A stretch of 64,000 nt of DNA. Source: Chrysomallon squamiferum. Taxonomy: Eukaryota > Animalia > Mollusca. The notes below the pieces were generated by a model that made no database searches, was not told where the DNA came from, and was given only the letters and a program-made list of their open reading frames with translations. Below are positions 3,360-56,043 of the stretch, in pieces. Position 1 is the stretch's first letter. The number at the start of each line of letters is the position of its first letter. Position numbers and translations under genes: made by a program. Location: positions 17,608,001 to 17,672,000 of the forward strand of contig CM022674.1 in NCBI GenBank assembly GCA_012295275.1, in the 5' to 3' direction.

Positions 3360-6300
3360 GATGATAATTCGGTATTTCTTTATTAGTTTCTTGTCTGTAT
3401 AAAAATGTTTGAATATTTAGGAATACACTTATTAGTTAAAATAGCTTTTTCTATAGCACAAACATATACACCACAGTTACTGCTATCAATCTGCCTGGAA
3501 TGTCAGAGTAATTAATAAAAGACCACAATGAAGATTTCCATAATATATCTTACGTTCCAACATTAAATAGCTGGAAACATGAAAAATGACTTCATTGTTT
3601 TTACCTCCAAATGTATCACAGTAGTACAGTACGTTTTTTTTTGGATATATCTGTTTCAGTTATTACTCAATGAGTGTTTCTTTCATTCAATGGAACAACA
3701 ACGTATTCATAATCAAACCATCTTTTACATTTACTTTCTGTTACGTGAAATGTCCATCTGGGTTGGTCACTATCACCGTTCACAAATATCTTCTGACCAA
3801 ACCAACCACAATCTACCATGTGAATATGTTGATTCTTCAGTTGTTTTTGAAGTACAGACATGAACACATTACTGTGGCTGCTATTCAGGCAGCTATCATG
3901 TAGAAGAATGTGGTTTATGACATCTGCATTTACAGTTATACCATCAATTTGAGTGCTAACAAAATATACCAATGATTGCATCGCTATTGAATTCTAATCA
4001 ATGAAACGCTGTCTGTGTCTCTCACTCTATTTTTTCGTATTAAAATGTAATATCTGTGATGATACACTGTTTATTATACTCTTGTCGTCAAATAATAACA
4101 ATGATCTGCATGTTTGTAAATCTGTTACGTTTATGTCATTTACAGGTTTCATTTCACAATTCTTAATTTCCAAACTATCAATGTCACAAAAAAAAAAAAG
4201 GAATCGATTCTCCATTCTTTTCTGCAACAGATGAATTAAGCCTGTATGATTGTCCATCAAGTCCTGGCAGTCTTCACGTCATGTAATGTTATTTGGTTCG
4301 TTTCTTGGTTGTCCAAAACTTCTGCAGTCTGATACATAACAGCCAAAGACATAAGCTTGTAAACAGAATAAAAGTGTTTTCATAACATGTTCACTTTTAC
4401 TTTGAAAAGTACTGAGACTTCGCTTAAACCAGGTTCACTGTTGTTATTTGCCTTCAGATATGTTTAGTGACTTCCTGATCAGAAAATGCATTGACCTGAA
4501 CAATGAAAAAGTGTCAAAACATACATACTTTTCATTACATTCCTTGCATGAATAATAATTTAAAAGAAGTGTTTCAGATTTCTCAGCAATAGTAAGTGTA
4601 GCAAAAATACTGATCTTAAATATATGGTTTAAATTCAACTATAAACGTTCACATTGAACTTCTTTCATATTTGTATTCGTTGTGGCAAATATATAATTTG
4701 ATGTCATTTTCTGTTTCCTAGTTCAAATTATCCTGGAATTAGAAAAAAATGTTCTTACAGAGTTGAATGTCACGTTTTATACCTTTGAAATCACTGCTGA
4801 TGCACCAAACATTAATAACAGATTGAGTAAATAATGGCAGATGTTTGTCTACTCTATGGCAGAATAACATGTAGCATGTATGATTAAAGTTGTCAGTTAA
4901 AAAGACAGATCATTATAATCACATGAAACAAACTGACCACAATGTTCAGTAAGTGTGGTATTATGACCTTGGTGACAGGAATCTCCATGGTTTCAAACAA
5001 ACTTTTCAGCTGATACTTAGTTTCTGCTTTTCCTATATTTTTACTCTGATCATTATTTTTCCTGAACAAATTGTGAGGAACTTGAATGTAATTTGAATTT
5101 GTTTTCATATATTCACTCGTAAAGGAAACATTTCTGAATTGTGAAAATAAGAGCTGAAGGGAAAGAAACTAAATGTTCTTTAATAAACATTTATTATGAG
5201 AGCATATGCAGATCTTTTCTATTGTCTTTGATTTACGATAATTATCAAATAACTGTTGTACAGAACTGTAACCCATTGCATCAAGCTGACACGTTATGAA
5301 ATGTGCATGATTATTTTTCCTGACTTTCACTGTAAACAAATATATTTACGTCATAAAACAATATTACCTTGAGCTCTTTCAGTATATTGCCAATAATTTA
5401 ATTTAAACAAATCATAACCATTTTGCTGACCATTAATATTTGTTCTCATTGCATAAGCAACATTTAATACAGCTTTGTGTAAAATATCATCTGGTACTTT
5501 TTCGCAGTGTTTATTTTCATCTTTCAAATGTTGCAGTACTTGCAGTATACTTTCTTCTACTAATTGAACTCGTAATTTTACATAAGTTTCAGAATATACA
5601 GTTAGAGGTTCACATTTATTTTCATAAATAATTAACCATGCAAATCGCTTGCTGCTAGGGCTTGCATCACTGCATTAAAACAGCAGGTGTTGCCAAAATA
5701 TTTCAAAGGTTTCCATGTGAATCCTGTATCGGTGACGTCTGTGTCACCATTTTTTACATATCTCTCACATTCACAGCTGTGATCATGCACTAGGCTGGAT
5801 TCGTTCTTTATTTTAGTGGTATTACTTCTTGTTTCAGTTTTATTTCTGGGTGCTTGCTGAAAAGTACCTTGTTTCTTAAAATTATCTGGTTGCTGTTTAG
5901 ATTTCGCTCACATTTCTGATTTTGTTATATTTATTTTTTTACCAATTGGCTTCTTTATCTTACTTAAATATTGTTTCACTTTCATACAATCTACAGCTGC
6001 CAATTTTTGCACTGAAAAATGATCTAGTCTTTGTTGGGTTCTGCAAAACTTTACCTTGAACAGAGTCAACACTTGGGTTATTTTCTATACTGCTGTTTGG
6101 CATCAACGTTCCCACATACTGACACAAACCAAACATTACATTTATGATACACCAACCCCAGAGACTTTACACTGGAATACACAAGGAACAGAAATATGTC
6201 TATCTGAAAAATGCAGGAAAATGTAAAAATATGCATGAATAATTTACTTACTACCCTGTCTGAGGAAATTAACCTAATAAACTATGTCTGGTTTTTTAGT

Positions 6301-7499
6301 TAAATCATTTCACAATTTACTTGTACATTAGTAGAGTTACCAGACTCGCTGGTATGTAACACTGTTACGGGGCGTCTAACGTAGTCGCATGCGACCCGTA
6401 ATTAACACAGTCGTCACGTGACCAAATTAGAATCCCGCAACAGCCGTAACACTGCTCCCCCAAATTACCACTAACTATACATACAGACCTCCCTGTATCA
6501 GGTAGATAGCTACCCGCTTTGGCTCGGCAGTGACGGTATTCAGGGAACAAGGTCATATATAAATTTATATTTAGCCAATTTTAAATCACTAGAAACACAA
6601 CAACACAAGTTTAGATTTAAAGACTGTATGTATTATATGATCTAATAATAGTTATTTACCATGTAAACTTACAACGCTTACACAGCTGATTACAAACAGT
6701 TTCATGCCACAAAATGACTCCCTCCACATCAGTGAACATACGGGGCATATTAAATGTGTTTATCCCTCAAGGTAACATAGCACACCCGAACATGTATTCG
6801 AATATGCAAGTAAATGAAAATAACCTACTACTTAGCAAGATGATCAGATATCCCCCTATTCTCACCCGCTGTTTTAGAGATAATAATTACACTTTACTTT
6901 GATTGGTCTGATCACAGATTACAAGCCATTCTCCAACTAATGGTTATACTACTTCAAATTAAATATAGTTCAATGATATCTGTTAGAAAACCACATCAAA
7001 CAACCTTTCAGTTGGTCAAACAGAGCCTTAAAAACTTATAGTTATCTAAGTCAGATGGATCTATGTAACTGTCCATCTGAGGGTTAGCCACACGTCTGTT
7101 CTGTACGGTGTAAAAACTGATTGCCCCAAACAAAACACGATCTCTGCTTTTATTACCTAGGAAAGACCACATAGCGGCTCTTTTAACACAGATGTCCCAG
7201 AGTGGTGCCGAGACTGGTTGGAACTTTAGCAGACACAGGTTCCATGGTTCCCCAAAACAACATCTCACCATAGCTTATACAAGTTTTAAGAATAATCTAA
7301 CGTCTATTACATATTAAACAGGAGACGGCTTTCTCCGTCACACTTAGCTTATATAATTCTTAAGGTTGCATATTAAAGAGCAGACTGCTGTCTCCCTTAC
7401 AAACACTATGTCACTAGAGGATGTCAGAGTCAAAAGAACTCGTACAATGCAGTATGCCATTGTAGTGTGTTACTCGTGAATACAGTAAATATTGCTCAT
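3360..7499 (-). pseudogene. Disrupted PHD-like finger + USP (C19) + Ulp1/SENP (C48) dual-protease gene; exons about 7401-7499, 6252-6273 and 6203 to about 3360
   Basis: USP Cys box LKYFGNTCCFNAVMQAL (about 5660-5710), GQQNGYDL (QQDAxEF-like), HLVSFPSALIFTIQK, His box NHGDSCHQGHNT (about 4955-4995) and CYMLFCHR. Ulp1 motifs FDYEYVVVPLNERNTH*(W)VI...YYCDTFG and RQIDSSNCGVYVC (about 3460-3715). Many stops and frameshifts; small upstream exons are phase-compatible. Confidence 0.8.
6363..7342 (-). mobile_element. Probable solo LTR (Gypsy-like), about 980 bp, in an intron of the protease pseudogene
   Basis: TG...CA termini with inverted ends TGTTACGG/CCGTCACA, higher GC than flanks, AATAAA on the minus strand near 7150; no matching TSD seen. 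Confidence 0.6.
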
Positions 7500-11716: not shown

Positions 11717-14700
11717 TCAAAATGTATTTATATTACTATCTTTAGCACCGTGCTCCAATAAATAGGAAATAGTTTTGCTTTTGTAACAATAATATCTGTG
11801 TCTCTTAGCTTTGTCAAGAGGAGTTTCACCTAGACCATTTATAAGATTTACATCAACACCTTTTTCAATCAGTGCTGTCACAATTTCTACATTTCCATCT
11901 TCAGCTGCTAAGTGTAAAACAGAATTGTTATCCTTGTCTGTTAAATTAGGATCAGCTCCTTGTTTTAACAAATACAAAAGTATTTTGTAATGCAGACACT
12001 TGACAGCTATAAAAAGAGGAGTTTCACCTTCACTGTTCTTTACATTTACATCAGCACCTTTATCAATCAGTGCTCTTGCAGTTTCTACATATCCATGTTC
12101 AGCTGCTAAGTGTAAAACAGAATTGTTATCATTGTCTGTTAAATTAGGATCAGCTCCATGTTCCAGTAAAACCAAAGCTACCTTTCTCTTATAACAGAAT
12201 GTATTTAGATTTTTAAAAACATTAACTTTATTGTACTTCAGAGCTCTGAAAAGAGCAGTTTCACCTTTCCTGTTCTTAACATTTACATCAGCACCTTTTT
12301 CAATCAGTGCTGTCACTGTTTCTACATTTCCATGTTCAGCTCCTAAGTGTAAAACAGAATTGTTATCCTTGTCTGTTAAATTAGGATCAGCTCCTTGTTT
12401 TAACAAACACAAAAGTATTTTGTAATGCAGACACTTGACAGCTATAAAAAGAGGAGTTTCACCTTCACTGTTCTTTACATTTACATCAGCACCTTTTTCA
12501 ATCAGTGCTGTCACAGTTTCTACATTTCCATGTTTAGCTGCTAAGTGTAAAACAGAATTGTTATCATTGTCTGTTAAATTAGTATCAGCTCCATGTTCCA
12601 GTAAAACCAAAGCTACCTTTCTCTTATAAGAGAATGTAATTCGATTTTTAGAAACATTAACTTTATTGTACTTCAGAGCTCTGAAAAGAGCAGTTTCACC
12701 TTTCCTGTTCTTAACATTTACATCAGCACCTTTTTCAATCAGTGCTGTCACTGTTTCTACATTTCCATGTTCAGCTCCTAAGTGTAAAACAGAATTGTTA
12801 TCATTGTCTGTTAAATTAGGATCAGCTCCTTGTTCTAATAAACACAAAAGTATTTTGTAATGCAGACACTTAACAGCTATAAAAAGAGGAGTTTCACCTT
12901 TCCTGTTCTTTATATTTATATCAACACGTTTTTCAATCAGTGCCGTCACAAGTTCTACATTTCCATGTTCAGCTGCTAAGTGTAAAACAGAATTGTTAGC
13001 ATTGTCTGTTAAATTAGCATCAGCTCCATGTTCCAGTAAAACCAAAGCTACCTTTCTCTTATAAGAGAATGTAATTCGATTTTTAAAAACATTAACTTTA
13101 TTGTACTTCAGAGCTCTGAAAAGAGCAGTTTCACCTTTCCTGTTCTTAACATTTACATCAGCACCTTTTTCAATCAGTGCTGTCACTGTTTCTACATTTC
13201 CATGTTCAGCTCCTAAGTGTAAAACAGAATTGTTATCATTGTCTGTTAAATAAGTGTAAAACAGAATTGTTATCATTGTCTGTTAAATTAGGATCAGCTC
13301 CTTGTTCTAATAAACACAAAAAGAGTATTTTGTAATGCAGACACCTGTTCTTTATAACATCAACTTTTCAGTCAGTGCTGTCAAAAGTTTCTACATATCC
13401 ATGTTTCACATTGTCTTTAAATTAGTATCAGCTCCATGTTCCAGTAAAACCAAAGCTACCTTTCTCTTATAAGAGAATGTTCTTTATATTTATTCATCAA
13501 CACCTTTCCTGTTTTTTTACAATCAATCAGTGCCGTCACAATTTCTACATTTCCATGTTCAGCTCCTAAGTGTAAAACAGAATTGTTATCATTGTCTGTT
13601 AAATTAGGATCAGCTCCATGTTCCAATAAAACCAAAGCTACTTTTGTCTTATAAGAGAACGTAGCTGGATCTTCTAGAAAAATGAACTTGTTGTAATTCA
13701 TAGCTGTAAAAAGAGGAGTTTCACCTTTCTTGTTCTTAACATTTACATCAGCACCTTTATCAATCAGTGCTGTCACAATTTCTACATTTCCATGTTTAGC
13801 TGCTAAGTGTAAAACAGAATTGTTATTATTGTCTGTTAAATTAGGATCAGCTCCATGTTCCAGTAAAACCAAAGCTAAGTTTCTCTTATCATATGACATA
13901 GCTAGGTCTTCTGTAATATCAGATAGTTTTGTTATATAAGACGACAGAGCCGGATATTTAACAAAATTATATCTTTTGTTATTCAGAAATGCAAAAAGAG
14001 GAATTTCACCTTTCTTGTTCTTAACATTTACATCAGCTCCTTTATCAATCAGTGCTGTCACAATTTCTACATTTCCATGTTTAGCTGCTAAGTGTAAAAC
14101 AGAATTGTTATCATTGTCTGTTAAATTAGGATCAGCTCCATGTTCCAATAAAACCAAAGCTACGTTTCTCTTATCATATGACATAGCCAGGTCTTCTGTA
14201 ATATCAAATTTGTAGCATTTCAGAAATGTAAAAATAGGAGTTTCACCTTGATTGTTCTTAACATTTACATCAGCACCTTTTTCAATCAGTGTTGTCACAA
14301 TTTCTACATTTCCATATTTAGCTGCTAAGTGTAAAACAGAATTGTTATCATTGTCTGTTAAATTAGGATCAGCTCCTTGTTTTAGTAAATACAAAAGTAT
14401 TTTGTAATGCTGACATTTAAAAGCTATAAAAAAAGGAGTTTCACCTTCACTGTTCTTAACATTTATATCAACACCTTTATCAATGAGTGCTGTCACAATG
14501 TGTATATTTCCATATTTAGCTGCTAAGTGTAAAACAGAATTGTTATCACTGTCTGTTAAATGAGGATCAGCTCCTTGATTTAGTAAATATAAAGCTATTT
14601 CTGGTTTGTGACATATCAAGGATACATGAAGAGGAGTTTTCTGTTCAGTGTTAATTGCATTTATTTCAGCACCCTTTTTTGTTACTGCTTTCACAACATC

Positions 14701-17255
14701 TATGTCAATTTCACAGGCTGTGTGCAATGCTGAATTCTCGTAGTAATCTGTTATATTGGTATCAGCACCATTTTCCAGTAAGAACAAAGCTATTTCTTTT
14801 CTGTGTGTCACTGCGTTTACAGCTTCATGAAGTGGAGTTTTTCCCTTACTGTTTACTGCGTTAACATCAGCATTTCTCTTTATTAGTGATTTTATCATGT
14901 CTAAGTCACCACGCAGAACTGAGATGTGGAGGGATGTATCTGATAGCAACAATTTCAAACTAACGTTGACACAAAACGACAGTCTGAATGTAATTTCATC
15001 ATCAAACAACTGAATCAATTTCTGATTAACAGCTACATTCACATTAGGATCAGCTCCTTTATCAAGAAGACACTGAACAACACCTGCACTGTTACATATC
15101 ATTGCCACTTTCAGTACTTGACTTTTCTTCCAGTTCTGATCTGCATCATAACATCTCTGTGAAATAAGAAAATTCACTGTATCAGTGGCTCCCCATACTG
15201 CTGCTGCTAAAAGTACTTCATCTCTGTTCTCATCGTTTAAACAATCAGGTTTCAGTTTTACTATTTCTTTTATAACACCAGAATTATTCTGACAAACAGC
15301 AATAATAGCAATGTCTTTCATTTTGTTTATTATATCAATGGTAACCAGTTTCTTGAATGGATGGCTTACATCAACAACTTGAAAAGTCTTTGACTTCCCA
15401 AAATACCAGTTTCTTGATTCACGTCTCAGTTGTCTATGGAACATAAGCAATAACAGTTTAATGGCTTTTTCCTTGATTTCACTGTTGTGTTTCTCGTGTT
15501 CTATCTTTTCAGCTAACAGACATGCAATCTTCATATTACCTGAAAAAATAGAAGCAAGTAAGAGATGTGAACACTCATTCAAACTAATATTTCTTTTACA
15601 CTGTAACAGTTCTTTGAGTATGGCAGCACTGTCTGTTTTTGAAGAAACAGCTGCATGCAATGTGTCAATTGTTGGAATAACACCTGATTTTAGCAACATT
15701 CTCACAACATCTTCATCACCAAACAAACAAGAAATATTCAAAAGTTCATTTTTCAGATTTGTTAATTTCATTTTACACAGATATTCAGTGAAAAATCTTA
15801 ACAATGTTCTTAATCCCTTCAAAATAAACTCACTTAGAACACATGATGAAATTTTTAAATGTGTTGTAGCAACATAACACATGGGAATAAAATAACTGTC
15901 AAGAACAGATAAAGTATTGCTAAATATTTCATCAAGCTTGTCTACATTTATAGATGATATACACAAATATTCATGTTGATGTTTATGTAGTTGTTGATGC
16001 AGTATGTCAGACAATTTATCATTAAAGTACTTTTCCTCTATGAGATACTTCACAAACTCTTCATCTTTCAATGATGGATGTGAAATAATGTCTGCAGCAT
16101 TGCTTGATGCCAACAAGTCAGTAAATCTCTGAGCAAGGACATCAAAGCAGTTAGGTTTCACAGTCATTGTAATGTGACTTTTGTTAGACACTCCAGGCGT
16201 CACAACATATTCTAACAACATGGGGACAGGACACATTTCTAGCAACTGTGCTGCTTTCTTTGGAAATTCTGATGAAAACATCAGAAACAATGAGTCAAAC
16301 ACTGACTGGTGAATAAATGTATATTTATTGTCAGAACACTTCAGATAGGTACCACACATTTCATCAGCTGTTTTCTTTATGTCTGTGAGATCAGTGTTTT
16401 TTACACTCCGACAGACTCGCTCTAGCTGTCTTACTAATTTCATTATGTCACTGTCAGTGTCATTTTCAAATGGGTCCAGTGAATCAATGCTGAGACTGTC
16501 TTGCTGGAACAAGATCAGCAGTAGAACCAGGTAATTGATCTGTGAAGCTTTATCATTTTTCAAATTTTCCAGTTGTTGTCTGAGATATTCGACAGGTTTC
16601 TCAAAAAACTTAACTCCTCTTTTCTGTGCATCACTTGAATTAACATAATACACACATACCTGAGGAAATCCTAACTTTGTACATGAACAACAAATGATAG
16701 TCCATTTATCATCTTCATGCATTGTAACATTCTTTTGTTCAAGATACTTGTTTAGAATTTTTAACTTTTCATAATAATTCAGGCAACATTCATTGCTCTG
16801 CAGGTCAAGGATATGATTTTCATTGAACAGATCAAATTCCTTCAGACTGGCTATAATTTCTGTAAATATTTGTTTTCTTAAAGTAATAATACATCTCACA
16901 CACTTGTCTTTAACAAGACTCCAAACCTCTGGAAATAGCTGTTTCCAGCATGACACAAAATCTAATACAAGATTAGTTTTACCAAATATGTCATCAATGA
17001 GAACAATACATGGTTTATCTTTAGACACAGGAATGTATTTGAAATCAGAGTGATGAGTCACGATGTAAGAGTCTATTTTTTCTTCTTTCTCTATCTGTTT
17101 AATCATGTTCAGACCTAGAGTTGTCTTTCCTGAACCTGGACATCCTACTACAACCACAACACCATTCTTTTTCAAAAGTGTTACACCTCTTTCTTCTGCT
17201 CTTGTTTCAACATAGACTCTCCTGTCAACTGAGTTTAACTGTGACCTGGTAGACT
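11717..17255 (-). CDS. Giant terminal exon of the NLR-like gene: nSTAND3-type STAND NTPase + ankyrin repeat array; frame broken at about 13250-13520
   Basis: Acceptor tacag| at 17256-17258; YVETRA...VVVVGCPGSGKT (Walker A), IVLIDDIFG (Walker B), IITLR, GFPQVC, FIHQSVFD; then more than 25 ankyrin repeats (GETPL/NSVLHLAA...GADVN) across ORFs 13456-17175 and 11717-13276. Confidence 0.92.
11800..13250 (-). repeat. 435-bp coding tandem repeat (4 ankyrin repeats, 145 aa), about 3.3 copies
   Basis: Matching motifs recur at 12000/12435/12870 and 12231/12666. Confidence 0.93.
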
Positions 17256-17549
17256 CTGTATCACAACATTAAAAGAAATAATATCTATTATTAACACATT
17301 TTAAATATATTTTACTATTAAAATATAGATAATATAATTTGTAACTAGTCATCAGATGTGAAATTTTTAAAATAAAGCAGCAGATTTTTTGTTATAATTT
17401 TAGTTCATCAAAATTTAATGACAATACCATATCACAGTTTTAGATGGTGTGAAAGTAACATAATGATTATCTTCTTATAAATTAACATCTTACAGAAGTA
17501 AAATTAAACACAAAAAAAAACAATAAAATTAAAAAACAAAAAAAAATAC

Positions 17550-17582
17550 CTTTGATATGGGATGTTCGTCCATCAGTCTTTG
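17550..17582 (-). CDS. 33-bp micro-exon of the NLR-like gene (TKTDGRTSHIK)
   Basis: tttcag| acceptor, |gtattt donor, phase 1-1, open frame. Confidence 0.6.
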
Positions 17583-17825
17583 CTGAAATAATATAAAAAT
17601 AAAACAAGTTTATATTACTGATGCTGAGTAAAAGAGAATGATTAAAGTGAATTGTACAGTAACTCTGTACTCCATCCATGGAACAGTCAACATATAGCAT
17701 TATTATTATATCTTTCTGATATATTTTAATATAATTATTTCTACTAGTATTAAAACTACTGCTGTTGTTTTTTCTCACTATTGTTACTTAGTTATTGTTA
17801 TTGTTCATATTATTATTATTATTAT

Positions 17826-17857
<32 letters not shown>

Positions 17858-18934
17858 TTATGTTCTTTACTGATTTTCAGTAGTTGCAAGTGATAATAAT
17901 GGCAGATGTATTGGCTAGTTTAATTTATGCAGAATTCTCTTAATAAAAAAATCTAGATAAGATTAATGATACTTATAATGTGTGTGTGTGTGTGTGTGTG
18001 TGTCTGTATGTGTGTGTGTGTGTGTGTTTGGGTGGGATGTCATAAGCACACATGTCAAAATGCGCCAACAAAACTGCGCTGGCGTAACATTTGTTATTAT
18101 TGTTGTTATTCTAATTATTATTTTACAAAGATTAACAAATCATAAACTTCAAACATTTAGTTCCAAATTATAAGCACTCCTGGGTAGTCCATGACTTTAG
18201 TTTCTTCAAATTGTCCAGTGGGAGTTAGGAAGCCAGCTTTGGATCTCACAGATTTAGGAAATGTTTAACTTACTCCTTGGCCAGCATTAACATGTGTTAT
18301 GACATTTTCCATATGGAACTGTTCTAACCTGATTGCTTCAGGATTAAATTGTTCAATTTCACAACTTACAAGCATTATTTCTCAGATCCACATGTAGATC
18401 ATACACTGCACACAGTATGAATAAAATGTGTCATTTGTTAGTATTATTGAATAAAACAATGTTTTAAAAAATGTGTAAAATTCTTTATATTAAATGTAAC
18501 TTTTTGCGTTTTTATATATATATATATATATTAATGAGTATTTTGATGCATATTCTAATAAACAGGAAGGCAAAACAGAAGTTTCTGTTTTTGACTTGTC
18601 AGTTAAATATTTTTTGTCTCATAATAGAACATTTCTAAAGTGAGATATATCTTAGTCACTCAGGCCAATGTTGTTGATGTGATGAATGGCAGTTTAATTT
18701 TATCCATGAACAATCTATCATTCAGCATAGCACAAAATGTTGTAGAATCCTCATGTGAACTAAATGGTCGTTCACACAATTTGTGCACTCATGGTAGTGG
18801 GTAGGCATATATGTGTGTATGTATTATGTCTGTGTTTGTTATGTGTTGGTCATACTTTTTGATGGTAAAATACTACCGATTAATGTGACATATATTTCTG
18901 TTATCGATTAAGAATGTTTTGATTTTTAACTTAC

Positions 18935-19021
18935 TGGTTTTCACAGCTTCATCTCCTGATACACTACTTCTGTTACTTGATAGATTTGTATCTGTTCTCA
19001 TATTTACATTACATTCTACCA
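18935..19021 (-). CDS. Exon of the NLR-like gene (VECNVNMRTDTNLSSNRSSVSGDEAVKT)
   Basis: ttgcag|...|gtaagt, 87 bp, phase 1-1, open. Confidence 0.75.
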
Positions 19022-19649
19022 CTGCAAAAAGAAAAAGAAGTTATTTAAAGTCAGAGCCTACAAGTGTTATTTCTAAAACTGTCTGTACCTACATGAAGAG
19101 CATACAGTATCAAAAATCTGTGTGTATGTGTATGTGTGTATGTGTGTGTGTGTTTTTGCATATATCAACAGCTATTTCTAAAACATGCATATTGACATAA
19201 GATAATGAAAATGACAATTTTAGAAGCAGTTTCTAAAAACAAAGGTGAGAAAAATATCTAACTGCAGAGAATAGCACATCCCAGAATACTTGGACAATGT
19301 ATTGGTTGCTGGTTGAGATAGGTCACATATGATAAGTGGGCTTTGTGTTCTGGGCAACATTAATGGGTTCAAGAAATTTAGTCAGTGTTTAATTTAATGA
19401 AAAATAAGTAATTTTGATAAGGTAAAATTTAGCTATGTAGTTGCTAGAGGTCAGCACTGTAGTAAAATGACTTCTAAATAATTACTGAGTGAGATTGGTG
19501 ATGTCAAGTTGTCAGTTAATGAATCATGTTTTAAGTGTGTAGTTCACTGCTGTTTTATGATACACCCAGTAAGATCATGTGCACCAAAACACGATACAAT
19601 TTCCATCAACTTTACAAATACGCATACACACATATATGCATACACACAC

Positions 19650-19697
<48 letters not shown>

Positions 19698-20000
19698 CCA
19701 TATATTTACATACATATACACATATACATACATATAAATATATACATATACATACATACATATTCAATGCATACACACATGCATACGCAGCCACACACAT
19801 ACATACATACATTCTTCTCCGTACTTTAATCCTAAAGTTTATGACAGTAAAGTCATTGTCATTGTCATTGTGACACTTGTAAAGAAAACTTGTTGTGGCA
19901 CTTTATCATAACACAATCTCATAGAAAGCCAGTCATCAACAATGAAATGTCCAACTATGTATATAAAACATACAAAATATGTAACATGTATGTGTGTGTA

Positions 20001-20031
<31 letters not shown>

Positions 20032-20176
20032 GTTAGAACATACAAACCAAACTCTTAAGTACACAAAGTACATACACTATTATTAACTATATAAAAATTA
20101 GGATCTTTACTTTTGTGTACTAGAAGATATTTTCCTAAGATTTTTCCTCTCTTTCTTTCTGTTATTTTTATTATTA

Positions 20177-20230
<54 letters not shown>

Positions 20231-20742
20231 AAGTTTTAATTTATTATTCTTTATTATCACTGTATATAGTAACAGAATAAAATGAAAAACACTGACTATT
20301 ACACTAATATTATTGAAATTGACTTAATTAGTCCTTCAGCTATAACAACCAGATGTGCAACAAATAAGAGACAAACACCATTTGTCCATTTTCATCCAAA
20401 ACAACAATAAAATACAAAATAAAAAACTACTTTTCATTTTGGATGCTTGTCCATCAGTAAAGATTATAAAAATAAAACAAGTTTATATTACTGATGATGA
20501 GTAAAAGAAAATGATTAAAGTGACCTGTACAGTTATTCATGGAAGTGTCAACATATAACATTATTATTATCTCTTTCTGATTTATTTTACTATAATTATT
20601 ACTACTAGTATTAAAACTACTGCTGTTGTTTTCTCTCACTACTGTTATTTAGTTATTATTGTTTATATTATTATTATTATTACACACACACATATATATA
20701 TATGTATATACATATATAGATATAAACATATACATAAATATA

Positions 20743-20773
<31 letters not shown>

Positions 20774-20781
20774 TTACAAAT

Positions 20782-20822
<41 letters not shown>

Positions 20823-21190
20823 TACCATCTCAGTGTACATGTACTTCTTAATTCTATGATATAAAATTCCTGAATGTTTCGGCAAATTATTGATTAGGTA
20901 TTCTATTGAAATGCTACTTATGAATGTTAACAGTTTTTCTTAGCAAATGTGTTTCTTGTGATGACATGGTGACATCAATATTAAAAACTGCTTCAACATC
21001 AAAATACATGCAATGTCAATGCCATATAAGGTTCATCTTTCTGAAAAAAATAGACTTGTCTCCTTTATCATAAGTGGGTCACATCTGTGGATGTTGTTCA
21101 TTAAACAGTGTCTGAGAGAAAAGCACTAATGTGTATTCTCTTATATATTAAACATGTACAGAAAAAGAAAACTTTCACTTTTCAACTTAC

Positions 21191-21277
21191 TAGTTAAATT
21201 GTTTTCAGCTCCTATTTGAAAATGTTGACAGTCATGTATGTTTACTGTTGGATTTACAAGTTGTAATATTGGAGTAT
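21191..21277 (-). CDS. RHIM-encoding exon of the NLR-like gene (DTPILQLVNPTVNIHDCQHFQIGAENNLT-M)
   Basis: ttcacag|...|gtaagt, 87 bp, phase 1-1, joins in frame to both neighbouring exons. Confidence 0.82.
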
Positions 21278-21799
21278 CTGTGAAACAGTAAATACATTTT
21301 TAAGGACAGAATACAGTATTAATACAATCAATTAATAGTATTATTGCATATAACACTATATCATTTAAAAATGTTTTTAACTGATTATGTGCAGGTGCTA
21401 TGAAATAAGTATTACTTTAAACTATTAAAATGTTTAACAGTAAATACAAGATTAATTATAATGGTCTCGATGAAGTAACAAAACAGTAACTAGAGTGTAT
21501 TTTGCTTTACTGTTTTAATCTGTTGAACAAAAAGGCCACAAAAAACAACAAAATTAATTCATTATCAATGTAACTTTTAAAAGTGTCAATTTACTAATGC
21601 CTAAGAAGTAACTAAACAATACATTGAAACATTGTATTGATACAAATGTAAATAGTACTTTTGTCAGTTTAGAATTTACCATCAATAAAGTAAACACTAT
21701 ATTGAAATATTGTATTATTACAAATATATAAATAATGTTGACTCTTTATAATTTCCTATTAAAAAAGTAAACAGTACATTGAAATACAGTGAGCATTAC

Positions 21800-22047
21800 C
21801 ACGACTGCTTGACACAGGTAGTTGTAAATTATGATCTCTATGAGTGATGTCAAAGGAAGACTGAGATGTGATGCCAGAGAGAGATACACTTGTCATATTG
21901 TCTAAGAGAGACACAGCTGTCACACTCTCTGCAGAAGAAATAGCTGTCACAGTTTCTACAGAAGAAACAGCTGCCACAGTGAACGAAACAGCTGTTGTGT
22001 TAGAAGAAACTTCTGAACTCTCATTTTGGTCATCCATATTGGCTGAG
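21800..22047 (-). CDS. S/T/V/A-rich exon of the NLR-like gene (SANMDDQNES...PVSSSR)
   Basis: tttacag|...|gtaatg, 248 bp, phase 2-1; overlaps ORF 21759-22037; the ATG at 22037 has a good Kozak context. Confidence 0.78.
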
Positions 22048-22587
22048 CTGTAAAAAATAATATAATGATTTTTTATATAGGACGAAGAAACGAAATGTTT
22101 TATTTACTTATTTTATTTACTGTTTTATGGGGTCAGACATAAGATTAAGGAACAGTCAGAAAACAAAAGAAGAAACCCACTGCAGTCACTTCACTATCTA
22201 CTCTGTCTTATTAACAACAAGTGATGTTTCATTTATACCTACCCACAGACAGTACAAACTATTTCATACATCAGGTGTTGAGTACTGCTTAAATGAAAAC
22301 GACTCAAGATTCCATCAGCAGGCATTGATCCAAATATCTAATACAACTTGCACATTTTACTAGAGACCTACATCTAGTACCTTGTATTAATAGTAGCATT
22401 GACTCATAGACTGTATTCTCAATTTCTGTTCTATAAATAAATGCCTGGACATAAATAAAAAGAGGCTTAAATAAATATCCTAATTTTATAAATAGGGGTA
22501 TTTGATTATGTTATTTAGAAATACTCAGGAAAACACAATTTCACAATACTGTTACCTAAAAACACAATTCTAATTAATTAATCTTAC

Positions 22588-22707
22588 CTCATTTTGGATT
22601 TGTTCTTTTTCATCTTTTTAGGGGGTGGTGATGCACTGACTGGGGCAGGTTCTGCCTCTGGGTTCCTGCGTTTCTCAGCTGTTCTGCTGCTTTGCTTTCT
22701 AGTCAAA
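22588..22707 (-). CDS. Basic exon copy A (LTRKQSSRTAEKRRNPEAEPAPVSASPPPKKMKKNKSKM)
   Basis: tttcag|...|gtaaga, 120 bp, phase 2-2, open. Confidence 0.72.
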
Positions 22708-22951
22708 CTGAAACACACAGATTTACTAGTGCTATTCCACATTTTTCTAAACACTACAAATATACATGACAAAAATCAACGAAACAGTTGTCAGAAATCA
22801 CTGTAAATGACAAAACCAGTGCACTGTAAAAAAAGTCCATGAAAATTACTGCTTTCCCATTAAACTGATTAATTTAGGATTCCTGATATCAACTTTTCAT
22901 TTAGTGCATTTTTCAAACTGAAAACACAAACCAACATCAGTCTGCATAGAG

Positions 22952-25924
22952 CAGGGGTGCTCACACTTTTTCAGCTTGCGAGATACTTTTAAAATAACCT
23001 TGTCAAAATGATCTACCTGTTTTAAAATATGCTAAATACTTTTATTTAAATAGGCATCGAAATAAATTGAGAACGCTCGTTCAGGTCACCGGGAGGTTAC
23101 CAAGTATCAATAATCCTTCAGTGAATGGCTAATGTCTTTTCTGAATCTTTTTCCGAAAAACAACGATTGATTCCTTAATTCTGTTGTTTATTTTTATTTT
23201 TCTCGTATGAAATTCCACCAAAGTTAGCGCCCAGCGATTTTTAATTCTTCCATTTTTTAGATGCATCCACTGTGTGACGTCACATGTTTAGTGATGGTCG
23301 GTCTGTAGTGTGACGTTACTTAGTTTGCAGCAGTACTGAATTTAAACGTAGCATTACCGGGCACGAGTTTTATTAAAATGGTATCCATTCATGTGTAAAC
23401 GTTTAAAAAATGGGATTTTTCCAATGACTTTTAGTTCGAAGTAAATGAAAAACAAATATGTCAAAACTACAATGCAAAAGTTGTACTGAAAACAAAACGG
23501 CAGTAAGAAATGAAGCCAAGTTAAGACGTATTACTTGTAAGTCGCTTGACGGAGTACTTGCCTATATCGATGGTTTCAAAGGCTACACACAGAAATCAAA
23601 CGTGCAAAGGCAGGTGAAAACAGGTAGCCTTCACGACTGGGCAAAAAAGAATTTTTTCACAAAACAGTTCAGACTCTCAAACAAATTCAGCTTCTGATAG
23701 TATGAAAGTAAATCGTAATGTTACGTGTTCTAATTCCAATGGAACATTATTTGAAGAAACCAGTAAAGAACAATATAAGAATCATTGCAATACACATTGT
23801 GGTTGGTTATGCAGGAGAGACCTATATCTGACTATCGGTCCCTGATTCCGTTACTGAAGAAGAATGTGGTGCAGTTTGTAAGTGGGAAGGACAATAACCA
23901 ATCATGTTTGGGAGTTTGTTCACTTTTTTGCCCAAGCAATGAGAGATGATATCAAACGGATGATACAGTATGCCAACTTTATGTCAGCTGAACAAGATAA
24001 CACAGAAGCTCGCAAAACTAGTGACGAAAAATAATACATTTATGTGAAGATTGTAGTGAGGGACCAGCCTGTGGAACTATTACTTAAATGTCAAAAAATG
24101 ATTAATTTCGTTGGAGTAACTTCAGAAAGAATCAAACATGCTATAGATGATGATTTCCATGATTTGACATTACTAGTGAAAAAGACATAAAAATCTCTTA
24201 TTTGTGCCTGTGTAGATAGATCAAAATTTAATGTTGGTATATTGATTGGAGCTCTAACTGTAATGGAAACTGAAGGCAGTGAATGGTTGCTAATAATTCA
24301 TTGCTCAGCACTCAGAATTGAAGGGGCGGTCAAAGATGCATTTACTGAAATTGGTGACTTGGCAAAAGTGGATGACATGATGTTGAATCAAGAACAGTGG
24401 CAAGTGTTGGAGAATATTGCTTCTTATTGCACAGCGGTTAGCGGTTCCAGTCCAACGTATACCGAAAGCTTCTGGTACACGATTTCAAATTCATAAATAC
24501 AGGACCATCAAATCTATGATCATAAACTTTCTGCCTCTATGTTTATTTGCGGTAAACATGATACAGGCTTCAAAAATTGTTTGCAAAGCAGACCAAAACG
24601 CTACACTAAAGGGGTTCCTTAACAAATGCATTCTTTCCATGACCCTATCTTCAAGACAATGAAAATAGATGATCACACTCAGCGGGATATATCTTATCCA
24701 AATTAAGGCTTGGAACAAGTACAACTTATATAACGATTTTGATGAAAGCCTAGCTTACCACAATTTTGCCATAGATATGGTTGTTGCTGAATGGAGGGGT
24801 TTAAATAATCTTGTGGTAAACAAATTCGTCTACTTCCAAAGTAAACAAGGCAAGTGGTGCCAAATATCCAGACACCATCACTCTGAATATCCACACATTC
24901 TTCTTATCATTTAAATCATATTGGCGGTTGCTCTTGCTATTGCAAGTGTTGAGAGTGGCACAAGCGCTCTCAGTCGGTAGTTGACAAATACCAGGTTGAA
25001 CATGTCCAATTGTACACTGGATGATTTGCTGGTGATTACAGTTAACCTGCCTGCACTTATAATCTGTGGCCCTTCATATGAACAAAAACTTACAGACAAA
25101 GCTGTTTCCCAGTATACAGTTTACTAAAAAAAACTAAGAAAAAGACCAGCATCTTGTACAATAGACAACCTGATTCTAGACTCTTTGTCAGACTCACAAG
25201 ACACATACTTACCTGTGCCCTCTTCAGATGTGATAAAAATAACCTGCAATGAACTAATGTGTGTAGAGGATTTTCTTGCTACTACAACATCAGATTCAGA
25301 GGACTTGGATGATGCTCGAGTCAAACAGTTGATACTTCAGACACTGATGATAGTGACAACTCAAAATGCTAACTGAAACAAGTTCATCATTCAGATTCTC
25401 ATATCAGTATTGTTTGATCAGTTAAGTAAAACAATAAAAAGAACACAAATTGTCACGATTTGTTTTATTGTATTGTTTAGTTATTAAATGCAATACACTA
25501 TATATATATATATACACAAAGTATTAATAATGTGAGAAAAATGATATGGATACATAACAAATATATTAATTATACTGTTGTCCATGCATGTATGTTAGGA
25601 TTTCACAACAATAATAATGGGAATCGTAAACTTCATACATTTGTTGTAACCTATTGGTTACGAGTTCCTGTTTTTTTGGTAACTTCTAAATGTGTTCGTT
25701 AGCAGACACAATCCTTATTTCGATGTATTTTTAAATATGTACTGAATATATTTATATATAAATTATCTGTTCTTACACTTTACATCAGTGCATGAATCGT
25801 TACAGCACAACACAACTGAACACATTTTTGTCACTTTGATGACTTGCAGTGAATACCGTGCGATTTATCCGCACTACACTGGCGATTGACCAGTCGATCA
25901 TGATCGAAGTATTGGACACCTCTG
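22952..25924. mobile_element. Non-autonomous hAT (Charlie/Buster-like) element, split by a nested insertion
   Basis: TIRs CAGGGGTGCTCA / TGGACACCTCTG, GATCGA-type subterminal motifs, imperfect 8-bp TSD gcatagag/gcttacag; empty site visible in the paralogous segment near 26433. Confidence 0.8.
23051..25727 (+). mobile_element. Decayed hAT transposon with a ZNF862-like transposase pseudogene (about 23380-25100)
   Basis: TIRs (GG)CATCGAAATAA / TTATTTCGATG, TSD tatttaaa/tttttaaa; motifs IHCSALRIEGAVKDAF, GTRF and the dimerisation region EYPHILL...ASVESG...RLNMSNCTLDDLL; many stops. Confidence 0.85.
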
Positions 25925-26077
25925 GCTTACAGAATAGAAAGTCATATGGAAAAAAGCTAAAATAAATCTCCTAATTTTTTAAATAGAGTTTGATCATGTT
26001 ATTTAGAAATACTCAGGAAAGCACACTATTTCAAAATACTGTTACCTAAAAATATAGTTCTAATTAATTAGTCTTAC

Positions 26078-26197
26078 CTCATTTTGGAGTTGTCGATTCC
26101 CATCTTTTTAGGGGGTGGTGATGGGCTGACTGGGGTGGGTTCTGCCTCTGGGTTCCTGTGTTTCTCAGCTGTTCTGCTGCTGTGCTTTGTAGTCAAA
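26078..26197 (-). CDS. Basic exon copy B (LTTKHSSRTAEKHRNPEAEPTPVSPSPPPKKMGIDNSKM)
   Basis: Paralog of 22588-22707 within a duplicated segment (about 22480-22950 vs about 25960-26440); intact splice sites, phase 2-2. Confidence 0.68.
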
Positions 26198-28430
26198 CTG
26201 AAAAACAAAGTTTTTACTTGTGCTATTCCAAATTTTTTCTAAACATTACTAATATACATGACAAAAATCAGCCGAACAGTTGTCAGAAATCACAGTAAAT
26301 TACTAAACCAGTGCATTGTAAGAAAAGTCCATGAACATTACTATCTTGCCACTAATTGATTAATTTAGGTTTCATGATGTCAACTTTCCATTTAGTGCAT
26401 TTTTCAAACTGAATACACATACCAAGGTGTCTGCATTCAGAACGGAAAGTCAGAAAGATAATCTGTGAGTAACAATGTCTGATTTTAAAATATGCAGAAC
26501 TGTATCAGCTGGGTCAGTTCAGATAGTTCAGGATTCAGATTCATTTGAGGCATCATATGAGTAATATTATAATCAATTCCTATCTTAGTTTTGTCAGACC
26601 TATTACTACATTATATAAACAATACAAATATAAATGTACCAAGAATAGTGTTACTAAGTAATATTCTTAGTCTTGTAAATTAGTTTATATAAACAATACA
26701 AATAGAAATGTCACAAATATGCACCTGAACATAATGAGTGGAAACGTGGCAAGTAATTACAAAGTTGTGATGATTGACAACAGAATGATGTTCTATGTTT
26801 CTGAATGACAGTTACAAATGATTTCACTGTTAAAGGCCAGTGTGTGATATTTCCTTGTTTTTCTTAACTGCAGCATGCTCACATATCAGATTTTGAACTA
26901 CATTGTTTGGCACATCTCTCATTCAGTGTCAAGTTGGCACTTTGGTGCACATCATAAACACAAAGATGACACAAAATAAGAATGCATTCAACATTATGCC
27001 TCAAACCTACAGGACATTAGTTTGACAATTATTACAATCATCAGTCCATTAGTGACCTCAACACTCTACATCCAACGCAATGCTGTAACTCTTCCTTAGT
27101 ACTTACTTAGCATTTTAAACAATTCTTAAAATTTAATTCTTGGAAAAAATCAGTATGAACATGTCTGATACTTTATATCAGGGTGACAAAACTGTTATAT
27201 CTATTAAATAAATATTGTATGATTATTCTTCAATATTGTGTCTGTTTGTATATAAACATACTTTGAGAAATTGTAGACTTCAGCTTTCAATAATCTGATA
27301 CATTCTTCATTCCAAATCTTCGTCACTTCATGATTTCATGTTAATTTACAGACACATTTCATCTGTGCAGTGTTTGAAACTGTCATCTTAATACACCATC
27401 AATACAGTAGTGACATCTCTGAGTAGTACAGTGTTCAAACATTGTCATGCTATGTACAAAGACTTTCTTTATTTACTATTTATTTTTTAAAGATGCTTTC
27501 TCCGCACCATAGATTTATATTTGTAAAATATATATATATATATATATTTTTTAAAGTCATTTCATGCAGTTAAACATGACTCTAGAGTAATTATAATAAC
27601 CTATGATTGTGTTTGAGTATGTATTCCTTCACTTAAACATTAAATTTAAATGCATTTTCAAAATAATAATAATAGCCATTACTCTATTATGTTTTTAAAT
27701 TGTTTAATACATTACTGAATGATAATTTTTCTACACTAAGTATAATAATTTATATCAGATTGAAAATATATATACACAAACACACAGCTGCACCGGAAAG
27801 AAACATTTTCTTCACTATGTCAAGACAAAATGAGTAAAAACAGCTGTATTTATGCTTCAAAATGTTTGGATTAAAGTTAGTGTCACCTAACTGGGGTTAT
27901 TTCATTATATAATACTTGTTGAAAACTGATTAAATATTTGAAGAAAGCATAGAATATTCTGTGACTGAAAGCATATCAACTTATTTTCTTTTTTAAATGA
28001 ATTACAAGTGACAGTCATTTTGTTATCTTGGAAAAAGAAACAGAACACTGATCAGAGTTTCCACTTAGAAACTGTTGAGTAACTCCTGTTACTTCGTTTT
28101 TCAAATGTAGATAAATAAATAGATAGCAACAAAGAAAACATTAGATACCTAAGCTAAAAATTCATTTTATTTATCAAATCAAATATAAAATTTGCTTATT
28201 GAAGTGAGTGTAAGTTATTTTATATAAAGATTGAAAACTGTTAAAGAAACAATTATAACTAACAAACTACCCAACAAGAATGAAAAGTTACTTTTTTAAT
28301 AAAACCTGGACCTAGTCCGAGACTGACTTTGACAACTAAAGTTGTATCCGTCTTGTACTGTACATTGCACACTTATAACATTAAATTTTAATGTAACTAA
28401 TTTAAACAAACAGAACATTTACTTACTTAC

Positions 28431-28511
28431 AATTCAGTTTAGCCCATCTTTAGACATTAGCTGCTGTATGTTAAACAAGTTGTCTGTAACTGTCCATACA
28501 ACTCTTCTGTC
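28431..28511 (-). other. Probable non-coding or poison exon of the NLR-like gene
   Basis: tgacag|...|gtaagt, 81 bp; contains stops in the phase-2 frame. Confidence 0.4.
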
Positions 28512-31360: not shown

Positions 31361-31389
31361 CAGCAGAAGTGACACAACTTATTCGCCAT
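31361..31389 (-). CDS. Candidate first coding exon, copy 1 (MANKLCHFC)
   Basis: GAGATGG Kozak context; |gtaagg donor in phase 2, compatible with the downstream phase-2 exons. Confidence 0.5.
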
Positions 31390-33049
31390 CTCCTCGCTCT
31401 GTTAATCACCCAGCAATGACCTACTTTGTGTAGCTTTCAGAGTGCTCCGGGCAGACACTGCTTATTTATTATTTATTTACTTGTTCGAGGTCACTGGTTT
31501 AGCTGAATGCATTATCACTGAGAGTTGGCTAAAATGTCAGTTTTCTAAGTGTGTCATGTTTCTGAAATATGGTTTCAGGTTAAAGTCAAAATGATATTGG
31601 GCGGATTATCAACAATGTTGAAGAAAATTATAATACTGCTGTACCTGCAAAGTAAAACTGATTTGAAATAAATATTTTAATTTTTTTTAAATTCTCTCAT
31701 GTGTAAGGGTTTTTTAATTAAATTAAGTAGGCCTAACTAAAAAAATAAAAATCTGACGTCTAATCCACTGAAACACTTTAAAGTGGAATGAACAAACGGG
31801 CACAGCAGTAGGAAGAAAAGTAAATGTGTTATTATACTGACTGTTAAAATTATATTTAAAAACAAAAACACATTTTAATCAAAACCGTCACAAAAATGAA
31901 CTGAAGAATAAATGTAAAATAAATAAATGAATATGAAATAAATAAACAAACACAAAGAAGTGAATAAAGAAAGAAAGAACGAAGTAGAATCTGGATACGG
32001 ACATTTGCCCCCCCTACAATAATAAAGTGCATAGGCGGAAAAATCCACAAGCAGAAATGCAAGATAGGATAAATGCTCCACGAATTAAAATAAAATGTAT
32101 ATCTGATAATTATAATAATTACAAAAGGAAAAACAGACATAATATTCAGTCATTGTTTATAAAATAGCCTTTCACTTTATTGTTAATTGTGGGATTTATG
32201 CAATTATTTAATAGGTCAAGTAAATTGGGTGTGACGAGCTTTAATGAATGAATAACTTTAAAAATAATTAGTATGACAGGTGACATAGCATAGCTTGGAC
32301 ACTATGAAATCATTTTTCACTTGACACTGACAACACTGATTTCGATGTAAGTTTTAAATTAATTTATTACACGTTTGCAGTGAGAAAAAGCATCCATGAA
32401 TGGATGATTGTACCCTTTCCTCTTTGGCTTGCATGTGGACTCAGCTTTTGATGCGTTTTAAACAGCCAGAAAGTAATCGCTTCATTAACTAGGTTTAATA
32501 TATTTAAAAATAATAATAATAAATAATAAAAAATAATAAAATATAGAAAATTGGGGAATATATTTTAATTCAATCCTGAAAAAGGTAGTCTTGGAATAAA
32601 TCATCGAGCTGTCAATAATACGTTCAGTACAGGAATTTTTTCTGAAATGCACAGATTCCTTTGAACTACCTTTGAAATAGATTATAGAAGCTAATTGTTT
32701 ATCTAACGGGACTACCTGACGTTTGTTTAGTCACGATTTTTATGTATCTTTAGTTTTTGTTTGGACAGTTGAGCTATATCTCTGTATCTCTCTGTTGTAC
32801 ATATACTTTTGGTGTTACATCTAAACCAACGTCCAATAATGTAAAATGTAGACAACAGACCTGATCTTCCTAATGTTAAGGAGTCCAGTCTCTCACACCG
32901 GATAATGTTATTAAATGTTTGCTACGTTATTGAAACGATGGCACAATGCACACATAACACAGTGTATTGTTTGTGCGTCTGTCTGTGTGTGAATGTAAAT
33001 TTGTATGACGTTATCACTACAATCTTATTAATGTATGTGTCTATGTGTT

Positions 33050-33121
<72 letters not shown>

Positions 33122-33961
33122 TAGATAGATAATATATATAAATATTTATTTATTTATATATATATACAGTCATAGATTGATATATATATAAATACACTGA
33201 AAACGTATAAGATCAAAGTGACTACTTGACGGTTTAAGTATAGTCATGGTACAACCGAAATGACTGTTGTAATATAATTATTTGTACCAGTCGTACAGAG
33301 ACCTTGCATTACATTTTCATTTTTACGTGACGATATAAACTAATTACAATGCATATGCTCATAGAATGCAAAGAGAGGGATTAAGGACTTATAGAAACAA
33401 GAAAATATAAGGGAAATAAGTCAAAACTAATAACTAAAGTAGGTGTATTTTCTGTAATAATTAACTAATTAACTTCCTATCTTCGCGCAATAACAGTATT
33501 TTTCTCCATCAAGCATACATTCTTTATAACACATTGGTTAAAAAGCTACTGGAAACTAAATATTTTTTAGAAAATAAATCAGATGGCCATTTTTGTGATT
33601 TTAAAATCGCAAATAATTCGAGATTCGAGACACAATTATCGATGAAAAATACCATTAAATCATTTCGGAAATCTTCTTTCTATGATTCATAAGTAAGACG
33701 TAAGTAATTTAAGAAAAATAATCTAATATAATCCATCCTCGAACACGTCATACAACAGGAATTGTATGTCCGCCATGACACTTTAGCGATACATCGCCGA
33801 GATGAACGTGTTTGACGAGGTAAAGAATTCAATTAGCATCTTTGCAGCATCTTGATAACATTTCAAACAATAAGATAAAAATACGAACTGATTGTATACT
33901 GTGAAATAAATAAAGAACCAACAGAAACTACAAAAAACAATACAGTATAAGTTTTCCTTAC

Positions 33962-33990
33962 CAGCAGAAGTGACACAACTTATTCGCCAT
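33962..33990 (-). CDS. Candidate first coding exon, copy 2 (MANKLCHFC)
   Basis: Identical to copy 1. Confidence 0.45.
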
Positions 33991-36467: not shown

Positions 36468-36496
36468 CAGCAGAAGTGACAGAATTTATTCGCCAT
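36468..36496 (-). CDS. Candidate first coding exon, copy 3 (MANKFCHFC)
   Basis: Same ATG and donor retained, with an L>F change. Confidence 0.45.
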
Positions 36497-36587
36497 CTCC
36501 TCGCTCTGTTAATCACCCAGCAATGAGCTACTTTGTGTAGCTTTCAGAGTACTCCGTGCAGACACTGTTTATTTATTTATTTATTTA

Positions 36588-36678
<91 letters not shown>

Positions 36679-37177
36679 TTGATGTTCTGATACAATTTTT
36701 TTTGTTACATACTGAAAATAATTCGCCTGGCTTACACGCCCATCTCTCAAGTTTCATCTTCTTTATGTACTTTATTCTAAAAAGCAGTTTGTTCTAGGTC
36801 ACTGGTTTAGCTGAATGCATTATCACTGAGAGCTGGCTACAATGTCAGTCAGTTTTCTGAGTCTGTCATGTTTCTGAAAGATGATTTGAGGATAAAGTCA
36901 AAAACATAATGGGTGGGTTATCATCAATGTTGAATAAAATTATAATACTGCTGTACCTCAAAAGTAAAACTGATATGAAATAAATATTTAAATTTTACTT
37001 TTAACTCTCTCGTGTGTAAGGGTTTTTGAATTAAATTAAGTAGACCTAAGTAAAAAAAAAAAAAAAAATGGCGTTTAATCTACTGAAACACTTTTAAGTG
37101 GAATAAACAAACGGGCACAGTAGTAGGAAGAAAAGTAAATGTGTTATTATAGTAAATGTGTGTGTCTGTGTGTATAT

Positions 37178-53624: not shown

Positions 53625-56043
<2,419 letters not shown>

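Follow-up and report, generated by a model that had tools for sequence, protein, structure and literature searches.

Does the scaly-foot snail Chrysomallon squamiferum carry a gene for an immune receptor that signals through an amyloid motif? The question is raised by a locus in the 64,000-nucleotide stretch analysed here (GCA_012295275.1, CM022674.1, positions 17,608,001 to 17,672,000; the window), in which a sequence-only reading had placed, between 11717 and 22047, a short exon with a motif like the RHIM of the cell-death kinase RIPK3, upstream of a STAND nucleoside triphosphatase (NTPase) and an ankyrin array. Our analysis confirmed the motif exon, into which transcripts of this gene family are spliced. 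We give a probability of about 0.5 to the reading that the gene, composed of leader, nSTAND3 and ankyrins, is a fungal-style immune receptor that would signal by amyloid templating.

The five exons named in that reading lie on the minus strand, each flanked by an AG acceptor and a GT donor; joined, they give a continuous open frame whose only stop is at its end. Splice sites and frame thus bear out the 87 bp phase 1-1 exon in frame upstream of the NTPase and ankyrins. This exon (21277-21191) encodes a product ending in VNIHDCQHFQIGAENNLT, and the Met codon that follows is completed by the 19021 exon. The motif itself, VNIHDCQHFQIG, occupies codons 21245-21210, which are residues 103-114 counted from the first Met.

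RNA contigs from four runs of one study were aligned over 20830-31700. The joint 21800|21277, which leads into the motif exon, was found with GT..AG ends in three of the four runs, as had been predicted, in contigs of the family. The joint 22588|22047 was present in two runs (one contig spans 22588-22707 and 21909-22047), 31360|28510 with GT..AG ends also in two, and the joint from exon 28511-28431 to the 22707 exon, with other letters between, in one. The gene therefore does not start at 22047 as first drawn; upstream of that point it has a further exon (22707-22588, ATG at 22613) and two 5′ exons, one at 28511-28431 and one near 31361. Identity to this locus was at least 99% for 53 of the 537 contigs, 95-99% for 120, 90-95% for 252 and below 90% for 112. 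The locus belongs to a transcribed multi-copy family. In the bin of the motif exon, one run had no contig and the other three had a lower summed depth than the preceding exon, contig depth being a quantity that cannot rank the parts of a gene.

The leader before the NTPase region has 160 residues, with the motif starting at residue 103 and Walker A at residue 198. It is rich in Ser, Thr, Val and Asn (29 Ser and 18 Thr), and the RHIM-like motif appears to sit in a non-globular region, disorder being predicted from this composition. No Pfam domain was found in the leader exons scanned, and no death-fold or other folded domain, in agreement with the earlier claim that no death-fold domain is visible N-terminally. 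In exon 28511-28431 the main frame meets a stop a short distance ahead of the donor and is thereby closed on its 5′ side. A death-fold domain further upstream was accordingly rejected for the splice path that the RNA supports; rarer RNA paths exist. Three 27 bp repeats at 21901-21980 code for Thr/Ala/Val/Ser-rich 9-mers, and their copy number differs among the family contigs. This segment could be a second beta-forming part of the leader.

A scan of the motif exon, as its 28 complete codons, against 24,736 Pfam models matched a single family, RHIM (PF12721), with 18.1 bits and an E-value of 0.0019, a score that so short a query flatters. The motif has V, I, F and I at offsets 0, 2, 8 and 10, followed by G at 11 and M at 18. 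This is the spacing of V450, I452, V458, V460, G461 and M468 in RIPK3, so that the hydrophobic positions are those expected of a RHIM; of these residues, V450, I452, V458 and V460 have been described as nucleating the RIPK3 fibril (10.64898/2026.02.19.706818). Its core, FQIG, occurs naturally in RIPK3 of two and RIPK1 of two amphibian species, and VQFG is the core in RIPK3 of seven species (PMC12119088 Supplementary file 8); FQIG is not among the core variants functionally assayed in the available part of that paper. The position of RIPK3 G457 is His here and Glu in mouse RIPK3. A search of the six frames of the 64 kb for the RHIM-type pattern returned one match only, the motif exon itself. 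An ESM Atlas search with the exon gave no usable match, and a complex prediction with four copies of a 30-residue piece (the 28 exon residues and two read through the donor) scored 0.04, a value that speaks neither for nor against assembly. By likeness, the motif thus resembles the RHIM amyloid tag of the vertebrate cell-death kinases, from which its putative amyloid character is taken.

The closest relatives of the protein are molluscan, as the sequence-only reading had expected. At least 980 representatives match the NTPase region, and the best 150 of the 980 were examined. The best named ones are Gigantopelta aegis proteins (38-50% in the NTPase region), and 20 relatives that were looked up come from Gigantopelta, Haliotis, Potamilus, Sinanodonta, Solemya, scallops and Mytilus, two of them being without a name. 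The NTPase start could be placed in 149 of 154 proteins, 78 of which have at least 20 residues before it.

We then compared all 149 12-mers of the leader with 74 N-termini of the relatives, and the 12-mers of the motif ranked 1-4 for likeness. In a rerun on 71 N-termini, after removal of near-duplicates and read-through models, the likeness statistic was 225, with 12 of the 71 targets at p<0.05. It exceeded all 42 controls, namely 12 sets of other segments (76-114), 15 shuffled queries (109-153) and 15 shuffles that kept the hydrophobic positions (96-177), and the direction was the same in every control. The literature-defined RHIM pattern was found in 6 of the 78 N-termini, compared with 2.3 in shuffles (P 0.025). 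Two further patterns gave P 0.0015 and <0.001; these were composed after viewing the sequences and are therefore not counted as evidence. Clear cases by eye are P0034 (LTVKDCSNVQFG), P0005, P0033, P0100, P0079, P0077 and P0136. P0034 carries the motif twice with a VQFG core, one copy being 12 residues from its start Met. This model (XP_041355392.1) resembles two tandem paralogues fused into one, both of which open with an identical RHIM-like motif that is followed directly by the NTPase. In a quick version of a maximum-likelihood tree, the NTPase studied here falls in a seven-row clade with Gigantopelta proteins (SH-aLRT, an approximate likelihood ratio test, 99). Within this clade, P0034, P0005 and P0003 match the motif in register, a close variant of it is present in P0033, and P0032 and P0002 carry another, Gly/Asn-rich motif. 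These comparisons suggest that, of the 160-residue leader, only the motif is common to relatives, in gastropods and bivalves and beyond chance.

The slot before the NTPase varies among the relatives. HEPN_DZIP3 was found in at least 7 of 21 folded-looking leaders, which indicates that this is an effector slot; Ig domains were found in other relatives. Death-like leaders in P0061, P0064 and P0067 and a caspase-like one in P0036 were noted by eye and are absent from the Pfam rows displayed. In P0002 and P0175, which are Gigantopelta paralogues, the leader opens with a hydrophobic segment that looks transmembrane-like by eye. Two clades that contain Haliotis proteins (P0012, P0049, P0057 and P0060; P0008, P0010, P0046, P0052 and P0053) have short beta-rich motifs of their own just before the NTPase. 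These are Gly/Asn- or Ile/Val/Asn-rich, of the types GM(T/S)GG-A-N and (T/L)VIN(D/E)I, and are not RHIM-like by profile; we regard them as candidate new, clade-specific amyloid signalling motifs.

A number of observations weigh against the amyloid reading. The RHIM score, obtained with a 28-residue query, is below the curated cut-off of 20. FQIG departs at its first place from the strict core, (V/I)Q(V/I/L/C)G as defined in the available part of PMC13506858, a core present in only 3 of the 78 relatives; His replaces the first glycine of the G-phi-Q-phi-G signature; and a search of solved-structure sequences with the motif exon gave no match at E 10. The motif is not at the extreme N-terminus: 103 residues separate it from the start, and about 60 from the NTPase region. 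Among the relatives, Pfam RHIM was found in none of the 52 N-termini scanned (the last 170 residues at most of 52 of the 78; 26 folded-looking or read-through models were left out), by filters that drop weak matches. Two of the six pattern matches are near-duplicates and two look accidental. Several of the 12 likeness matches are likely due to chance (about 3.5 expected), and two are in HEPN-bearing leaders; because the targets are related and some matches are chance ones, the p-values are optimistic and the size of the effect is uncertain. A de novo motif from 49 relatives, built by expectation maximisation (log-likelihood 179 versus 153-158 for shuffles, the real set having had more starts), was overfitted; it scored the present motif near zero and gave a Haliotis-type motif. 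No gene in the six frames of the 64 kb could be identified as a partner with a matching motif, a search that short spliced exons and distant genes would escape. In the RNA, contigs are mostly 90-95% alike and therefore none is tied to this copy. In three of the four runs a contig diverges from the common sequence at 21959, upstream of the motif exon, and such contigs continue for at least 255 other letters; some members therefore likely differ before the motif exon, and some likely lack it.

Part of this evidence would also fit a chance or convergent likeness in a disordered leader rich in Asn, Val and Ile, with signalling through a helper NTPase or the NTPase itself. The sub-threshold score, the 0 of 52 relatives, the failure of the de novo search to recover the motif, and the leaders of fewer than 20 residues in 71 of 149 database models, though many of these may be truncated, are in its favour. 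Nevertheless, an E-value of 0.0019 across all of Pfam, a likeness to the relatives' N-termini that depends on residue order and exceeds every control, the same-register motifs in gastropods and bivalves, and a dedicated symmetric exon make this explanation improbable. Two of the checks proposed earlier came out divided: Pfam confirmed nSTAND3 and left the exon product under the RHIM threshold, and the survey of relatives supported recurrence by likeness and not by the Pfam profile.

The NTPase exon matches Pfam nSTAND3 (PF20720) with 87.1 bits, compared with a cut-off of 27.2. Walker A (GCPGSGKT at 17145) and Walker B (..IDD near 16995) are both intact, and G37, G40, G42, K43, D87 and G91 are invariant across 25 sequences. 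The model of this region has a predicted local distance difference test score of 93.9. In structure alignment it was closest to MalT (Z 14.6, root-mean-square deviation 5.5, 322 residues), an archaeal STAND-TPR protein (Z 14.0) and NRC2 (Z 13.8); generic AAA+ proteins align almost as well, but over only about 200 residues. Foldseek matches to the model include NRC1, Avs5, SAMD9, NLRP3 and Apaf-1. The NTPase is thus an nSTAND3 whose predicted structure has the STAND fold, with NTPase, helical and winged-helix domains. No NACHT or LRR was among the 25 best of the 33 Pfam families, and by the strict definition it is not an animal NLR.

In the ankyrin array, Pfam Ank recognised 14 stretches in the main frame and 13 in a downstream frame. 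The array is broken at 13521-13255, which is a further point against the proposed receptor, and the main frame stops at 13458-13456. The frame had been thought to run to 11717; in fact it stops at 13456, and 13282-11717 is a separate ankyrin frame, with AATAAA at 11590 near its end. Aligned with the intact array, the break shows 69% identity with 164 gap columns. An intron across it is disfavoured, as the in-frame GT..AG pairs all lie in ankyrin-derived sequence and have poor consensus. The break is due either to decay or to misassembly, the array being young. As assembled, this copy would encode 1,426 residues and its ankyrin array would be shortened; should the break be an artefact of assembly, the protein would be longer.

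Could this copy then be a decaying paralogue of a once functional family, its transcripts coming from its relatives? The scrambled stretch and stop would be expected if so, as would the loss here of an ATG that relatives' contigs have near the start of the 22707 exon, the decayed exon copies (one, of the 17550..17582 exon, lies near 20460-20430) and the likely transposon remnant in the introns, and the contigs that are mostly less than 95% alike. On the other hand, the 3.8 kb exon and all the leader exons are open and the Walker motifs intact; the break is in a young tandem array (the 435 bp repeats of the second frame are 95% alike), where misassembly is presumably common; a stop in the last exon would spare the NTPase and up to 14 Pfam ankyrin stretches; and 53 of the 537 contigs are at least 99% alike. 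We consider decay of this copy to be unlikely.

From the exon structure, the splicing of the family into the motif exon, the Walker motifs, the STAND fold, the lack of a folded effector and the recurrence of the motif, all direct results, and by analogy with NWD2/HET-S, bacterial BASS and ZBP1/RIPK systems for sensing, oligomerisation, amyloid nucleation, partner and output, we infer the following mechanism. The ankyrins would bind a ligand, and ligand binding would let the NTPase oligomerise. The oligomer would stack the motifs into a cross-beta seed, which would convert a partner with a matching motif, and the output may be NF-kB activation or cell death. A RIPK1-like kinase is the best candidate for the partner, since the RIPK1 of one bivalve, the zebra mussel, has a RHIM, which is required for maximal NF-kB activation as described in PMC12119088. 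A partner search among shorter proteins with residues 1-42 of P0034 yielded no candidate sharing three words.

A different role for the same motif is a selected interaction strand that does not template; it would stabilise the receptor's own oligomer, in the way that cRHIMs of insects support the oligomerisation of receptors, or would bind an adaptor or inhibitor that is folded. Here no folded effector domain carries the signal, hence any partner downstream has to attach to either leader or NTPase, and the spacing of the motif fits the fibril-nucleating positions. We hold this role to be clearly less probable than amyloid templating, if somewhat more so than a chance likeness.

How does the gene compare with known systems? 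The amphioxus (Branchiostoma floridae) protein BF82280 was described by sequence by Kajava et al. as a RHIM-NACHT-repeat protein (available part of PMC4262963). It too is an animal protein with a RHIM, then a STAND NTPase, then repeats, the RHIM replacing a death-fold domain. The layout itself is therefore not new, which reduces the novelty of the present gene; however, BF82280 has a NACHT and is from a cephalochordate, whereas here we have an nSTAND3 in a mollusc, in a multi-copy ankyrin family with several motif types. Fungal NWD2/HET-S and PP-motif NLRs and bacterial BASS3 NLR/Bell pairs likewise lack a folded effector and place a short motif of amyloid type ahead of a STAND NTPase, which is followed by repeats; according to the parts of the sources available, a motif-bearing partner gene is adjacent and prion behaviour has been shown (PMC7889193; 10.1101/2020.01.06.895854). 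In those families, as in this one, there are also "all-in-one" forms with folded effectors. The present case differs from them: no partner was seen next to the gene, the motif sits inside a leader of 160 residues, and its amyloid behaviour is putative.

With the RHIMs of vertebrate RIPK1, RIPK3, ZBP1 and TRIF, the motif shares the spacing of the four nucleating hydrophobic residues, the Gln, the Gly and the Met, and an amphibian core; it differs in having His, Ala and Glu at RIPK3 G457, D462 and N463, and in being on an NTPase without a kinase, Z-alpha or TIR domain. Among bacterial immune proteins, Avs5 has an nSTAND3 (10.1101/2025.07.08.663546, as available in part) and shares the repeat sensor region, but its effector is a Sir2 enzyme. 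The mollusc nSTAND3-ankyrin proteins of Gigantopelta aegis, Haliotis and bivalves have the same nSTAND3, repeat sensor region and variable N-terminal slot (HEPN, Ig and others), whereas their entries are named uncharacterised or ankyrin-like, with no RHIM annotation among the matches listed. A second profile search gave no new nSTAND3 group and no RHIM annotation among the matches listed. Domain-shuffled STAND expansions have been reported in bivalves, RHIM being unmentioned in the part of that paper seen (PMC8195603). In the open-access literature we found nothing that combines RHIM and nSTAND3, no mollusc STAND with an amyloid motif, no nSTAND3 paper on molluscs by title, and no experimental case of amyloid signalling from an animal STAND receptor. 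A RHIM-containing oyster protein is reportedly cited in the literature. What appears to be new is an nSTAND3, mollusc version of the RHIM-NTPase-repeat layout, real at the level of sequence and splicing.

Table 1. Features of the nSTAND3-ankyrin locus in the window (UTR, untranslated region)
Positions	Strand	Feature	Evidence
31361..31392	-	Likely first (5′ UTR) exon of the family, with a short upstream ATG inside	RNA joint 31360|28510; donor GTAAGG
28431..28511	-	5′ UTR exon	Joints to 31360 and to the 22707 exon; translation
26078..26198	-	Second copy of the exon at 22707-22588; the corresponding frame is open here too	87% over 493 columns versus 22459-22947; translation
22588..22707	-	120 bp phase 2-2 exon, with this copy's first in-frame ATG (22613)	RNA joint 22588|22047
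21800..22047	-	Ser/Thr/Val-rich exon, about three 27 bp repeats, predicted non-globular	Translation, repeats; Pfam: nothing beyond one weak match (E 0.1)
21191..21277	-	87 bp phase 1-1 exon with RHIM-like motif VNIHDCQHFQIG	Splice sites, frame, Pfam, RNA acceptor
18935..19021	-	Predicted 87 bp phase 1-1 linker exon	AG..GT ends, in frame; Pfam: no match
17550..17582	-	Predicted 33 bp phase 1-1 linker exon	Splice ends and frame
15994..17255	-	nSTAND3 NTPase with predicted helical and winged-helix parts	Pfam PF20720, model, fold matches, invariant columns
13522..15400	-	Ankyrin repeats in the NTPase frame; approximate start	Pfam Ank, 14 stretches
13255..13521	-	Break: pieces of ankyrin coding sequence, with numerous deletions and shifts of frame	Alignment versus the intact array
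11717..13282	-	Second ankyrin frame, recent 435 bp repeats, terminal stop	Frame, Pfam, self-alignment

Elsewhere in the window, a decayed insert lies at 22950-25925 between the two copies of the 120 bp exon, with short inverted ends CAGAGGTGTCC and CAGGGGTGCTC and broken transposase-like frames, one of which had no Pfam match. It is probably a hAT-type element. The region with the likely first exon and promoter is present in three to four tandem copies, 83-94% alike, at 30145-37159, which are possibly alternative starts. A spliced gene on the minus strand at 53600-56100 encodes a fibrinogen-related protein with PAN and fibrinogen C-terminal domains; fibrinogen-related proteins of this kind are often linked to mollusc immunity. 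Positions 1-2342 are a tandem array with a period of about 53 bases. Many short broken frames on the minus strand at 3600-7300 resemble a decayed mobile element, one of them with a peptidase-like GNTCCFNAVMQ motif noted by eye.

Beyond this single locus, we tentatively raise the wider possibility, less probable than the reading of the gene itself, that molluscs run a large amyloid receptor system of the fungal type, in which nSTAND3-ankyrin receptors swap HEPN and other folded effectors for short exon-encoded amyloid motifs, RHIM-like or of new types, and every motif would seed a partner of its own. In fungi and bacteria, STAND receptors have been proven to signal by amyloid, and the amphioxus layout is described by sequence only in the available part of PMC4262963. 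If true, amyloid signalling would be shown for animal STAND receptors for the first time, and animals would have their first immune amyloid motifs other than RHIM. The family offers short candidate motifs, RHIM-like and other, in snails, abalone, mussels, scallops and clams, and would be a plausible upstream sensor for the RHIM-bearing RIPK1 of molluscs.

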